Positions 21,370-26,711 of a stretch of DNA of 64,000 nt are shown here, in pieces. Under the pieces are notes generated by a model that was not told the DNA's origin, did no database searches, and saw nothing but the letters and a program-made list of their open reading frames with translations. The stretch is from Escherichia coli (GTDB lineage Bacteria > Pseudomonadota > Gammaproteobacteria > Enterobacterales > Enterobacteriaceae). The stretch's first letter is position 1, and each line of letters begins with the position of its first letter. Location of the stretch: assembly GCF_016903815.1 (NCBI RefSeq), contig NZ_CP069973.1; one strand, 5' to 3'. The position numbers and the translations under genes are program-made.

Positions 21370-23631
21370 ATGACAATTCTTAATCACACCCTCGGTTTCC
21401 CTCGCGTTGGCCTGCGTCGCGAGCTGAAAAAAGCGCAAGAGAGTTATTGGGCGGGGAACTCCACGCGTGAAGAACTGCTGGCGGTAGGGCGTGAATTGCG
21501 TGCTCGTCACTGGGATCAACAAAAGCAAGCGGGTATCGACCTGCTGCCGGTGGGCGATTTTGCCTGGTACGATCATGTACTGACCACCAGTCTGCTGCTG
21601 GGTAACGTTCCGGCGCGTCATCAGAACAAAGATGGTTCGGTAGATATCGACACCCTGTTCCGTATTGGTCGTGGACGTGCGCCGACTGGCGAACCTGCGG
21701 CGGCAGCGGAAATGACCAAATGGTTTAATACCAACTATCACTACATGGTGCCGGAATTCGTTAAAGGCCAACAGTTCAAACTGACCTGGACGCAGCTGCT
21801 GGACGAAGTGGACGAGGCGCTGGCGCTGGGCCACAAGGTGAAACCTGTGCTGCTGGGGCCGGTTACCTACCTGTGGCTGGGTAAAGTGAAAGGTGAACAG
21901 TTTGATCGCCTGAGCCTGCTGAACGACATTCTTCCGATTTATCAGCAAGTGCTGGCAGAACTGGCAAAACGCGGCATTGAGTGGGTACAGATTGATGAAC
22001 CCGCGCTGGTACTGGAACTGCCGCAGGCGTGGCTGGACACATACAAACCCGCTTACGACGCGCTCCAGGGACAGGTGAAACTGCTGCTGACCACCTATTT
22101 TGAAGGCGTAACGCCAAATCTCGACACGATTACTGCGCTGCCTGTTCAGGGTCTGCATGTCGATCTTGTACATGGTAAAGATGACGTTGCTGAACTGCAC
22201 AAGCGTCTGCCTTCTGACTGGCTGCTGTCTGCGGGTCTGATCAATGGTCGTAACGTCTGGCGCGCCGATCTTACCGAGAAGTATGCGCAAATTAAGGACA
22301 TTGTCGGCAAACGCGATTTGTGGGTGGCATCTTCCTGCTCACTGCTGCACAGCCCCATCGACCTGAGCGTGGAAACGCGTCTTGATGCAGAAGTGAAAAG
22401 CTGGTTTGCCTTCGCCCTGCAAAAATGTCATGAACTGGCACTGCTGCGCGATGCGCTGAACAGTGGTGACACGGCTGCTCTGGCAGAGTGGAGCGCTCCG
22501 ATTCAGGCGCGTCGTCACTCTACTCGTGTTCATAATCCGGCAGTAGAAAAGCGTCTGGCGGCGATCACCGCCCAGGACAGTCAGCGTGCGAATGTCTATG
22601 AAGTGCGTGCTGAAGCCCAGCGTGCGCGTTTTAAACTGCCCGCGTGGCCGACCACCACGATTGGTTCCTTCCCGCAAACCACGGAGATTCGTACCCTGCG
22701 TCTGGATTTTAAAAAGGGTAATCTCGACGCCAATAACTACCGCACGGGCATTGCGGAACATATCAAGCAGGCCATTGTTGAGCAGGAACGTTTGGGACTG
22801 GATGTGCTGGTACATGGCGAGGCTGAGCGTAATGACATGGTGGAATACTTTGGCGAGCACCTCGACGGTTTTGTCTTTACGCAAAACGGTTGGGTACAGA
22901 GCTACGGTTCACGCTGCGTGAAGCCACCGATTGTTATTGGTGACGTTAGCCGCCCGGCACCGATTACCGTTGAGTGGGCGAAGTATGCGCAATCCCTGAC
23001 TGATAAACCGGTGAAAGGGATGTTGACCGGCCCGGTGACTATTCTCTGCTGGTCGTTCCCGCGTGAAGATGTCAGCCGTGAAACCATCGCCAAACAAATT
23101 GCGCTGGCGCTGCGTGATGAAGTGGCGGACCTGGAAGCCGCTGGAATTGGCATCATCCAGATTGATGAACCGGCACTGCGCGAAGGTTTACCGCTGCGTC
23201 GCGGCGACTGGGATGCCTATCTCCAGTGGGGCGTGGAGGCTTTCCGTATCAACGCCGCCGTGGCGAAAGATGACACACAAATCCACACTCACATGTGTTA
23301 CTGCGAGTTCAACGACATCATGGATTCGATTGCGGCGCTGGACGCAGACGTCATCACCATCGAAACCTCGCGTTCCGACATGGAGTTGCTGGAGTCGTTT
23401 GAAGAGTTTGATTATCCAAATGAAATCGGTCCTGGCGTCTATGACATTCACTCGCCAAACGTACCGAGCGTAGAATGGATTGAAGCCTTGCTGAAGAAAG
23501 CGGCAAAACGCATTCCGGCAGAGCGTCTGTGGGTCAACCCGGACTGTGGCCTGAAAACGCGCGGCTGGCCAGAAACCCGCGCGGCACTGGCGAACATGGT
23601 GCAGGCGGCGCAGAATTTGCGTCGGGGATGA
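21370..23631 (+). CDS. metE: cobalamin-independent methionine synthase
   Basis: 753 aa [22 protein letters not shown]...; matches remembered MetE. Confidence 0.95.
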
Positions 23632-23799
23632 CGAATATTAACGAGTCACTGTAAATTGCAGTACGATAATGGCTTCCAGCACTGGAAGCCATTTTGCATG
23701 AGTGCCAGATTGAAGCTGATCTTCAGGAGCAGAAATAACCGAATCGTTTTTTTCGCAAAACACAGTTTTGAGTGATTCCGTTCAGTAATCAACGCTACG

Positions 23800-24060
23800 T
23801 TATTTATTCTCACGTTGCACGAGATTGTATCCCTTTTCACTAACGTGGTAGTGAGGCATAGACTTATTCCCGCTATCCTCAATAATAACCAAACCTTCGT
23901 TAGCTAATTTGTTAACAATGTTAACAACATTCCCGAATCCTGGAATTTGCCTTATGGATAGTGTGCGATCGAGATTCATCCAGTTCCAGTTTATATCTTT
24001 CTCAGTCATAACGTTCAGCACGTTAAGTTCATTTTTAGTGATCACGATATTCTGTACCAA
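23800..24060 (-). CDS. small winged-helix-like protein, paralogue 2; candidate immunity protein
   Basis: 86 aa; roughly 55-60% identical by eye to the neighbouring 85-aa ORF (shared IPGFGNV..NIV.KL...GLV core); AT-rich island. Confidence 0.55.
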   Translation of the reverse strand: MVQNIVITKNELNVLNVMTEKDINWNWMNLDRTLSIRQIPGFGNVVNIVNKLANEGLVIIEDSGNKSMPHYHVSEKGYNLVQRENK

Positions 24061-24119
24061 AATTGATGAGTATCTTATTGAAAGATCACAATGTAAATCA
24101 TGCTCCTGTAATGGCTGGA

Positions 24120-24377
24120 TCAGAAGAGGTTGTCTTGTTGTTCTTTGATAAGATTCAATCCATATTGAGAAACTCTGTAGCGTGGTCTAGAGTTGCCCTC
24201 ACCATTTACGATATCAACCAACCCATGATTAACCAGCTTTGTTACGATATTCGCTACGTTGCCAAATCCTGGAATATTTCGTATAGCTAAAGTACGATCC
24301 AGCACCATCCAGCTCCAGTCAATATCTTTCTCAGCCATAACTTTCAGCACGTTAAATTCAACTATCGTAATCGTCAT
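24120..24377 (-). CDS. small winged-helix-like protein, paralogue 1; candidate cognate immunity protein
   Basis: 85 aa; start overlaps the stop of the Hcp-extension gene (ATGA), implying translational coupling. Confidence 0.55.
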   Translation of the reverse strand: MTITIVEFNVLKVMAEKDIDWSWMVLDRTLAIRNIPGFGNVANIVTKLVNHGLVDIVNGEGNSRPRYRVSQYGLNLIKEQQDNLF

Positions 24378-25507
24378 TTTGTTGCATCCGGATGAAATAA
24401 GTCAGTATCTTTAATTTTAAAGTCTTCTAGAGTTGCAGTATGTACATTATTCCATAATTCATATCCATCTAAACCTTTCGGTTCACCTGTTTCCCATCCT
24501 AAATTACAATAACGCTGATACTCGCGACATTCATGAGTATAGTAGTTCAGATCGTATTTTTCAGGAAGCAATTCTTTATTTGCTATTTTCTTTAGCCTTG
24601 AAATCATTACATCATTAGCTGGATCATGATCAAATCTGGAGATATGCTTTTCAACAATAGCGATACCTTCCCTGTTGATTGTTACGCCATCTATCGTCAG
24701 GTTTTCAATTGGACCACCGGCAAGGTCGGGATTAAATGGTCTTCCTGATACTGCTCCTCTGGCTCCGAAATGCTCAAGTGATTCCAAATCAGGGAATCTC
24801 ATTCTTCCCAGAACAACTCCAGCAACTATTGAAGCACCAGCGATGAGTAACCCTTTGTTATCCATAACTTGATCGTAACCAGCAGGTGCATCTCCTCCCA
24901 ACTTGTTTGCTGTTTCCCTGAATCCTTCGATATTCCCATTGTATATGCCGCCAGCAGCAAGCAGTCTGCCAACCGCTTTACTATTGAGTGTTTTGAGGCC
25001 ATTATCATCTTTAGTTTTTGGCCGTGGTATAAACAGACGGTTGTAGTTATCGGGAAATGCCAAATAACTAAATTCAGTATTAGCAATCAGATGCCTGGAG
25101 AGTATATATTCATAACTGACAGTGATGGTTTCTGTATCCAGATTGTTCTCAGTAAACAGGTGATTGATTGCTGATAAGAGCGCGCCGCGAAGTTGAATGT
25201 TGTAATATTTCTCCCATCGACCAAATCTATTGATCCGATAGAAGTCAAACTCCATGAACAACTGCTCGTTATTGTTAATAGCGTTAATAAGTAACGGGGA
25301 GCTTTTGTCAATCAATTTACAGAAACTAAGGCCATGCAATTGTGACCCTTTGCCTGTATTCGTAATACTATTAGAGAGCGAGAACGCGAAGATTTCATCT
25401 TCATGGCCAATCTGCCAGCGATTACCTATTGATGCGCTCGTTCCACAACGAGAGGAAATACATCCTTGTTGTTCTCCGGTTATGTTCAGGTAAATAATAT
25501 CACTCAT
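24374..25507 (-). CDS. Hcp (T6SS tube protein) fused to a C-terminal extension: candidate 'extended Hcp' toxin
   Basis: 377 aa; N-terminal ~150 aa aligns by eye to Hcp (IYLNITGEQQG ~ IKGESKD; FCKLIDKSSPLL ~ FTKYIDKSTPNL; FYRIN ~ WYKIN); ~220-aa extension with a Gly/Ala-rich hydrophobic stretch and an unassigned C-terminal domain. Confidence 0.75.
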   Translation of the reverse strand: MSDIIYLNITGEQQGCISSRCGTSASIGNRWQIGHEDEIFAFSLSNSITNTGKGSQLHGLSFCKLIDKSSPLLINAINNNEQLFMEFDFYRINRFGRWEKYYNIQLRGALLSAINHLFTENNLDTETITVSYEYILSRHLIANTEFSYLAFPDNYNRLFIPRPKTKDDNGLKTLNSKAVGRLLAAGGIYNGNIEGFRETANKLGGDAPAGYDQVMDNKGLLIAGASIVAGVVLGRMRFPDLESLEHFGARGAVSGRPFNPDLAGGPIENLTIDGVTINREGIAIVEKHISRFDHDPANDVMISRLKKIANKELLPEKYDLNYYTHECREYQRYCNLGWETGEPKGLDGYELWNNVHTATLEDFKIKDTDLFHPDATK

Positions 25508-25898
25508 CCTTGAAAAACCTTTTGTTAATTCTTTTGTGAAAGAAAAATAGTATTGTTATTTTTTACCTTTATTTACGCCTAAAAGGGATGAACTAAAATG
25601 TGAAAAACAAAATGTTTCACTTTAATATCTTTTTATCAGGAAGGTCTGAGATAATTTATAATTAATGTGAATGTGTTGATAATAATTAATGTTTGTTTGA
25701 GAATGGGAGTTGATGGTAAATCTCTAAGGTGTCTGCCAGTGAAGAGACTCACTTATGACTATTACTTGCCGACTTTCTTAAGGTCAAATAGCGGAGTCGT
25801 GCTCTCCAATCAATTCATACTGATTATTTTTTGGGGGACAGAGATGGCAGCAAAACGCACTCGTTCACTCACCATCTCAAATATAGACTAAGAGGAAA

Positions 25899-26711
25899 CT
25901 AATTCCGCTTCCCACCATACTGCTTAAACCACTCCAGCATACGCTGCCAGCCATCTTTCGCAGATTCGGCATGATAGCTCGGGCGATAATCGGCGTTGAA
26001 TGCATGCCCGGCATCCGGGTAGACGATAATCTCTGCTTTCGCATTAGCAGCCCGCAGCGCCTGGCGCATGGTTTCAACGCTCTCCTGCGGAATGCTGTTA
26101 TCCTGACCACCATATAAGCCGAGAACCGGCGCGTTAAGATCGGTTGCGATATCAACAGGTTGTTTCGGTGAATTCAGCGACTTATCGCCTGTCAGTTTGC
26201 CGTACCATGCCACCGCCGCTTTCAGTTGCGGGTTATGCGCAGCATACAGCCAGGTGATACGTCCACCCCAGCAGAATCCGGTGATCATTAAACGATGAAC
26301 ATCGCCGCCGTTGCGGGAAGCCCAACTGGCGACATGATCGAGATCGGCCAGCACCTGCGAGTCAGGCACTTTTGCTACCAGACCGCTAAGCAACGTGGGG
26401 ATATCGGCAAAATCATTCGGATCGCCTTCGCGGAAGTAAAGTTCAGGTGCAATAGCCAGATACCCCTCCAGCGCCAGACGGCGACAAATGTCGCGGATAT
26501 GTTCATGCACGCCAAAAATATCCTGCACTACAATGACCACTGGCAGTGGGCCATCGCTCTGCTTTGGTCTGGCATGGTAAGCAGGCATGTTATCCCCTTG
26601 TGAAGGGATAGAGGTGAAGCCCGCCACAATCGCGTCGTCCGGAGTCTGAACGATGGTCGAAGCGAGAGGCGATGCAGCAGGTGCAAATCCAGATTGTTGT
26701 GTTGTTGCCAT
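25899..26711 (-). CDS. ysgA: dienelactone hydrolase-family protein YsgA
   Basis: 271 aa from ATG at 26711 (MATTQQSGFAPAAS...); track ORF extends upstream in frame. Confidence 0.85.
   Translation of the reverse strand: MATTQQSGFAPAASPLASTIVQTPDDAIVAGFTSIPSQGDNMPAYHARPKQSDGPLPVVIVVQDIFGVHEHIRDICRRLALEGYLAIAPELYFREGDPNDFADIPTLLSGLVAKVPDSQVLADLDHVASWASRNGGDVHRLMITGFCWGGRITWLYAAHNPQLKAAVAWYGKLTGDKSLNSPKQPVDIATDLNAPVLGLYGGQDNSIPQESVETMRQALRAANAKAEIIVYPDAGHAFNADYRPSYHAESAKDGWQRMLEWFKQYGGKRN

Follow-up and report, generated by a model that had tools for sequence, protein, structure and literature searches.

Hcp proteins that carry a C-terminal toxin extension are already known in E. coli as Hcp-ET effectors. 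Ma et al. 2017 (Virulence 8:1189) reportedly catalogued more than 350 Hcp-ET sequences, and the E. coli members are said to fall into five clans: ET1 (HNH-DNase), ET2 (DUF2235/Tle1), ET3 (Pyocin S), ET4 (colicin DNase) and ET5 (papain-like). The protein that we describe here may be among those catalogued sequences. Antibacterial effector activity has been reported for Hcp-ET1, Hcp-ET2 and Hcp-ET3-4, and the delivery of ET1 and ET2 is stated to depend on a T6SS (PMC6730261; PMC6099711).

We analyzed a 64-kb stretch of E. coli DNA (the window) in which a three-gene island lies between metE and ysgA. The island shares the architecture of the Hcp-ET effectors. Its largest gene, hcp-ET, encodes an N-terminal Hcp domain followed by a putative C-terminal toxin extension of 230 aa. 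The gene also lies outside any T6SS cluster and has predicted immunity genes directly downstream, a layout that in Hcp-ET effectors includes duplicated immunity genes. In contrast to the Hcp-ET effectors, the island encodes predicted immunity proteins of the winged-helix type rather than the colicin-Im type, and it occupies the metE-ysgA junction rather than aroP-pdhR. The architecture is a known one, while the toxin domain of this locus is uncharacterized. We think that the island is probably a stand-alone effector-immunity cassette of the Hcp-ET type, whose toxicity, neutralization, secretion and expression we infer.

The locus also resembles systems that are not built on Hcp. As in polymorphic toxin systems (in the sense of Zhang et al. 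2012), one toxin domain appears on many trafficking domains with an immunity gene directly downstream, and a displaced or orphan immunity gene appears to have been kept after a swap of the toxin tip. In contrast to those systems, Hcp serves as the carrier in place of Rhs, PAAR or CdiA, and the island is a minimal one of three genes without VgrG, adaptor or chaperone. Among S-type pyocins (Pyocin_S, PF06958), one from Pseudomonas has a tip that is 50% identical to the toxin domain, and a small overlapping downstream ORF. However, the hcp-ET protein lacks a receptor-binding domain and a Pyocin_S translocation domain, and its delivery is predicted to occur via the Hcp fusion. YPK_0952 of Yersinia pseudotuberculosis, described as a "pyocin-like" T6SS DNase effector, combines PAAR with Pyocin_S (PMC11237486). 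Compared by description rather than by sequence, it is similar in re-using bacteriocin modules on a T6SS carrier and in having a small downstream immunity gene, but differs in its PAAR carrier and in the presence of Pyocin_S.

An AT-rich island replaces the metE-ysgA spacer

When the flanks were compared with an empty-site genome (L003), homology to the window was lost after position 23627 and returned at 25908. The island therefore spans 23628-25907, a length of 2,280 bp. At the empty site just 54 bp separate the flanks, and these include a GC-rich terminator hairpin with a U-run. The island also alters both gene ends: in metE the stop codon and the base before it, which completes the final Gly codon, and in ysgA the last two codons. 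GC content is 0.30-0.42 over 23650-25900 compared to 0.52-0.59 in metE and ysgA. These data indicate that the 2.3-kb block between metE and ysgA is a foreign insert. An insert at this junction and a contrast in base composition had both been proposed by an earlier reading of the sequence alone (the sequence-only reading), and both are borne out; the ORFs that it described were all found where it had placed them. We looked at the island for flanking direct repeats, an IS element and an integrase as signatures of mobility, and saw none. The features of the island are as follows.

23628-25907, no strand: AT-rich island of 2,280 bp, in the place of the 54-bp metE/ysgA spacer of empty-site genomes
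23668-23693, plus strand: hairpin with an 11-bp stem followed by UUUUG (RNA fold -22.4 kcal/mol, z -2.9)
23800-24045, minus strand: imm2, encoding an 81-aa paralogue of the imm1 protein (60% identity); predicted orphan immunity gene that matches toxin allele B
24120-24377, minus strand: imm1, encoding an 85-aa winged-helix protein; ORF with an ATGA overlap with hcp-ET, predicted cognate immunity gene
24374-25507 (stop codon included), minus strand: hcp-ET, called as an ORF, encoding a 377-aa Hcp with a predicted C-terminal toxin
24377-24748, minus strand: predicted toxin domain of 124 aa (residues 254-377), all-alpha, with invariant His, Glu, Arg and Asp
24800-24997, minus strand: portable linker or pre-toxin module, residues about 171-236 (KTLNSKAVGRLLAAGG...GLLIAGASIVAGVVLG)
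25067-25507, minus strand: Hcp/TssD tube-protein domain, residues 1-147 (TIGR03344, PF05638 and PDB matches)
25508-25898, minus strand: AT-rich region upstream of hcp-ET (GC 0.30-0.36) with weak promoter-like matches

hcp-ET encodes a full-length Hcp domain

An identical protein in RefSeq, WP_001521777.1, is annotated as tssD. Residues 1-147 match the NCBIfam model TIGR03344 (E 2.8e-36) with 124.9 bits against a curated cut-off of 58.9, covering model positions 1-161 of 167, and they match Pfam PF05638 with an E value of 4.8e-14. The N-terminus also matches solved Hcp structures in the PDB (6a2v, E 8.5e-15; 3he1, E 1.5e-12). These results agree with the earlier proposal that the N-terminal ~150 aa are Hcp-like and indicate that, by the family-model criterion, the protein contains a full-length Hcp/TssD domain.

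By BLASTP, UTI89 Hcp-ET3-4 is 67% identical to the hcp-ET protein over residues 1-171, with no similarity after residue 171, and the two proteins have a common junction motif (...FP..YN.LFIP). This similarity places the Hcp part in the same carrier lineage as the experimentally studied UTI89 protein. Salmonella and Citrobacter homologues with 62-83% identity have remained full-length Hcp fusions, which indicates selection on the whole protein.

The extension consists of a portable linker and a widespread putative toxin domain

The sole strongly hydrophobic segment of the 377-aa protein is found at residues 220-238, with a Kyte-Doolittle maximum of 1.69 at residue 220. The linker is conserved behind three unrelated N-termini and is joined to other C-terminal domains in two further proteins (P0259 and P0241). 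It matches the PHROG prophage families 31266 and 14497 (E about 1e-15) and is poorly predicted by AlphaFold (pLDDT <60).

The toxin domain is characterized by three conserved motifs: EKH..RF..DP.N, YTHE.RE..RY and W..(A/V)HT.TLE. Its family comprises 695 clusters at 50% identity, and the domain is nearly always C-terminal. Fusions to Rhs repeats, PAAR, the eCIS core domain, LysM and LXG occur in other proteins, and in some the domain is preceded by Pyocin_S translocation domains. When the last 124 residues of the hcp-ET protein were compared to the tip of a 774-aa Pseudomonas S-type pyocin (P0236), they were 50% identical over 127 residues (E 6e-36). Downstream, an 89-aa ORF overlaps the pyocin gene. 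Many pyocin-like proteins that end in this domain are found in Serratia, Salmonella and Pseudomonas. The sequence-only reading had called the extension toxin-like, and the homologue searches support this, as it ends in a C-terminal domain of exported polymorphic toxins and S-type pyocins. Judged by these relatives, the 124-aa domain is a widespread polymorphic-toxin and bacteriocin killing domain that is itself uncharacterized.

Family models do not cover this domain. A Pfam-A search with the 377-aa protein at E <= 10 returned T6SS_HCP alone and thus no model for the toxin domain, no NCBIfam model matched the domain, and searches of the PDB with the single sequence and with a profile found no relative. 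None of the PADLOC models matched the hcp-ET protein or either small protein at E <= 0.1. As a positive control, UTI89 Hcp-ET3-4 was recognized by the Pfam models Pyocin_S (2.2e-39) and Col-Pyo_DNase (2.8e-41). The hcp-ET extension, in contrast, matched none of the clan domain models that were tested, and as far as these models allow, the toxin is assigned outside the five described Hcp-ET clans.

Several candidate identities for the toxin were rejected. PT1 of Nachmias et al. is a DNase of novel fold whose toxin-immunity structure has been solved and in which H44/H48 are reported to be critical (bioRxiv 10.1101/2021.10.19.465003). The hcp-ET toxin has no PDB match by sequence or fold, and the H44/H48 spacing of PT1 has no counterpart among its conserved histidines. 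Hcp-ET3 was rejected because the "ET3" of UTI89 is the Pfam Pyocin_S domain, which is absent from the hcp-ET protein. Carocin S3 is indicated to have a carocin S2/D-like C-terminus, so it is uninformative as a relative.

Basic nucleases are usually paired with acidic immunity proteins. The toxin domain has a pI of 5.15 and its pyocin homologue a pI of 4.7, while the small proteins have pI values of 6.5-6.7. The combination of an acidic toxin with nearly neutral small proteins runs contrary to this pairing, so a nuclease assignment is weak. Pyocin S3, the one bacteriocin DNase lacking a Pfam model, has a non-HNH DNase domain (PMC5536347 S1 Table; PMC9990079). No P. aeruginosa protein, pyocin S3 included, was among the toxin-domain matches listed in our homologue searches and cluster look-ups, and the acidic pI of the toxin domain argues weakly against a DNase. 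A bolder reading, which we regard as conceivable but doubtful, is that the domain represents a new-fold class of killing domain. This class, possibly non-nuclease, would stand apart from all five described nuclease-bacteriocin classes including pyocin S3, would be countered by minimal winged-helix immunity proteins, and would use the glycine-rich hydrophobic linker to carry Hcp-, DUF8093- and prophage-borne toxins across the inner membrane of the target.

imm1 tracks the toxin tail and imm2 matches a second toxin allele

The stop codon of hcp-ET overlaps the start codon of imm1 as ATGA ("...gcaacaaaATGAcgatt"), which confirms the overlap first seen in the sequence-only reading. AlphaFold predicts imm1 with a pLDDT of 88.5 and the topology H-H-H-beta-beta-H, a PadR/MarR-like fold (TM 0.7-0.78 to structural matches of 98-147 aa). 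Although the small proteins have a wHTH fold, they are only 81-85 aa long and are not placed in the MarR/PadR families by model searches: no Pfam or NCBIfam model matched them, and the best hit was EarA-like with an E value of 0.21. Neither protein has a signal peptide or a hydrophobic N-terminus, which fits a cytoplasmic target.

Several of the 170 imm1 homologues share contigs with homologues of the toxin. Cassettes in Cronobacter and Pantoea consist of the linker, the toxin and an overlapping downstream imm1-type gene, and they lie behind unrelated N-termini. Across genera, the sequence type of the small gene co-varies with the type of the toxin tail. The ORF downstream of pyocin P0236 has no detectable relation to imm1 (BLASTP E 0.48; hhalign probability 0.15%) and homology between the two is unsupported.

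The imm2 ORF covers 23800-24060 on the minus strand (86 aa) when read from a TTG codon and encodes 81 aa when read from the GTG at 24045. The GTG is the start used by RefSeq in an identical genome, and the same position is an ATG in the allele-B orthologue. Up to window position ~24625 the two toxin alleles of E. coli, A and B, share at least 92% identity, which falls to 69-75% across the last ~85 codons. Allele A next has 330 bp (imm1) that B lacks, after which identity returns to 96% over imm2. The divergent tip, the added imm1 and the restored identity together form the pattern left when a new toxin-tip/immunity module displaces another, as read from the alignment. In 13E0780 and O145:H28 RM12761, a small gene overlaps the stop codon of allele-B hcp-ET, and imm2 shares 86-88% identity with this gene. 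We assign imm2 as an orphan immunity gene because it is orthologous to the immunity gene attached to the second toxin allele in other E. coli. The proposal that both tandem small genes are immunity genes of this toxin is upheld in part. It is supported for imm1 as the predicted cognate gene, which travels with the toxin domain across genera and tracks its tail; imm2 matches the other toxin allele, so the island does not hold two immunities for one toxin.

Predicted immunity genes are kept where the toxin gene is broken

The locus is carried by 848 of 5,426 complete E. coli genomes (15.6%) and is chromosomal and single copy in every carrier. Its presence at metE-ysgA is variable rather than universal. 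Carriers include CFT073, 536, UTI89, Nissle 1917 and the E. coli type strain. In 257 of 845 carrier genomes (~30%), hcp-ET has a W98* nonsense mutation, and this allele is found in Nissle 1917 and the type strain. Both small genes were intact in every W98* genome sampled, an outcome expected if the small genes have immunity value of their own. Similarly, hcp-ET is annotated as a pseudogene and both immunity genes are intact in CFT073 and two other sampled genomes.

A search with 1,708 bp of the locus placed 269 genomes in the band of at least 99% identity, and all matches listed there were full-length. Intact hcp-ET copies also occur in an hxlB-island background and as allele B. One allele-B copy is frameshifted, and some genomes carry IS insertions (H1, H42, H67).

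Because the locus is common, in roughly a sixth of complete E. coli genomes, and some carriers have lost the toxin with both small genes left intact, it could help strains to exclude one another in the gut and urinary tract. If so, lineages whose toxin is intact would attack, and those with immunity alone would be bystanders under protection. The domain itself is widespread on Rhs, PAAR, LXG, eCIS and pyocin carriers across its 695 clusters, without a Pfam model or solved structure. The compact three-gene E. coli cassette would be a convenient entry point for characterizing it, and the two alleles with their matched immunity genes offer a natural specificity pair.

The island is predicted to depend on a T6SS encoded elsewhere

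No T6SS genes are annotated across the 64 kb of the window, as judged from a colinear genome with a 100% identical locus. In NZ_OZ121091.1, where the locus is also 100% identical, a complete T6SS lies about 1.05 Mb away at the yafV locus and comprises tssA-M, a clpV-like gene, vgrG, Rhs and two hcp genes. The sequence-only reading had anticipated both the lack of T6SS genes in the window and a T6SS elsewhere. The Hcp domain of the island is 38% identical to the 160-aa Hcp of this cluster and 31% identical to its other Hcp protein.

A PadR/MarR-like winged-helix fold is typical of antitoxin-repressors, and the island could instead be an intracellular toxin-antitoxin or abortive-infection module. 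Its small proteins would then be antitoxin-autorepressors, the toxin would act in the producer, for example on phage infection, and the Hcp part would be a relic or a sensor. The matches of the linker to PHROG prophage families are consistent with such a role, as is the distance of T6SS genes from most cassettes. The Pantoea cassette has no T6SS gene nearby and sits in a restriction-modification/retron/OLD-nuclease island, among type I restriction-modification, reverse transcriptase, OLD-family ATPase and integrase genes. However, the PADLOC models recognize none of the three proteins, the gene order, with the toxin first, is that of effector-immunity pairs, and the domain is C-terminal in exported Rhs, PAAR, LXG, eCIS and pyocin proteins. 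The Hcp domain is also complete and scores at twice the curated cut-off, and an orphan immunity gene against a foreign allele suits inter-strain warfare rather than a self-contained toxin-antitoxin pair. We consider this module very unlikely. An even less probable role for the small genes, and the one to which we give least credence, is that of transcription factors for hcp-ET or for the distant T6SS, with self-protection achieved otherwise or with an extension that is not toxic. The winged helix is a DNA-binding fold, relatives carry the NCBI name "MarR family transcriptional regulator", and the pI of the small proteins is close to neutral instead of acidic. Yet at 81-85 aa they lack the MarR/PadR dimerization helices present in the longer structural matches (98-147 aa), and neither Pfam nor NCBIfam returned a regulator model. 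The small genes are linked to the toxin domain and not to Hcp or the T6SS, their sequence type follows the C-terminal tail of the toxin, and the island holds no other candidate immunity gene.

The locus could also be a silent or decaying remnant whose ORF is intact by chance and has no current function in this strain. The W98 nonsense codon in 257 of the 845 carriers, the frameshifted allele-B copy and the IS insertions point in this direction, as do weak promoter matches in extremely AT-rich upstream DNA. Against this, the window allele is an unbroken 377-codon ORF, and all matches listed among the 269 near-identical genomes are full-length. Intact copies persist in the hxlB-island background and as allele B, and Salmonella and Citrobacter retain full-length Hcp fusions at 62-83% identity. 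Decay in this strain is therefore unlikely in our view, if somewhat less so than the two alternatives above.

Under the effector-immunity reading that we favor, the Hcp domain would join the inner tube of a T6SS whose genes lie at another chromosomal site, as predicted from the complete cluster in a genome that has the identical locus. Tube ejection would take the C-terminal 230 residues into a neighboring bacterium, and the conserved hydrophobic linker might, speculatively, help the toxin reach the cytoplasm. There the 124-aa all-alpha domain may act as an enzyme on a cytoplasmic target. This target is tentatively most probably nucleic acid, because the same domain is the killing tip of S-type pyocin-like bacteriocins. 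The producer would be shielded by imm1, a predicted cytoplasmic winged-helix protein that would be translationally coupled to the toxin gene and bind the toxin tail. imm2 would have been retained from, or acquired against, the second toxin allele found at the same site in other E. coli, and would protect against attack by allele-B strains.

Candidate transcription signals

Based on its predicted fold, the hairpin at 23668-23693 is a candidate replacement terminator for metE, and the island operon may possibly end here too. It fails a simple terminator scan, with a U-run of only 4. Upstream of hcp-ET, two promoter-like sites on the minus strand (25850-25823 and 25787-25758) each match the consensus at 9 of 12 positions. 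With such weak matches in very AT-rich upstream DNA, the island may be silent in laboratory conditions. imm2 is preceded by a 74-bp spacer, within which 24097-24069 on the minus strand resembles a sigma-70 promoter by consensus match.

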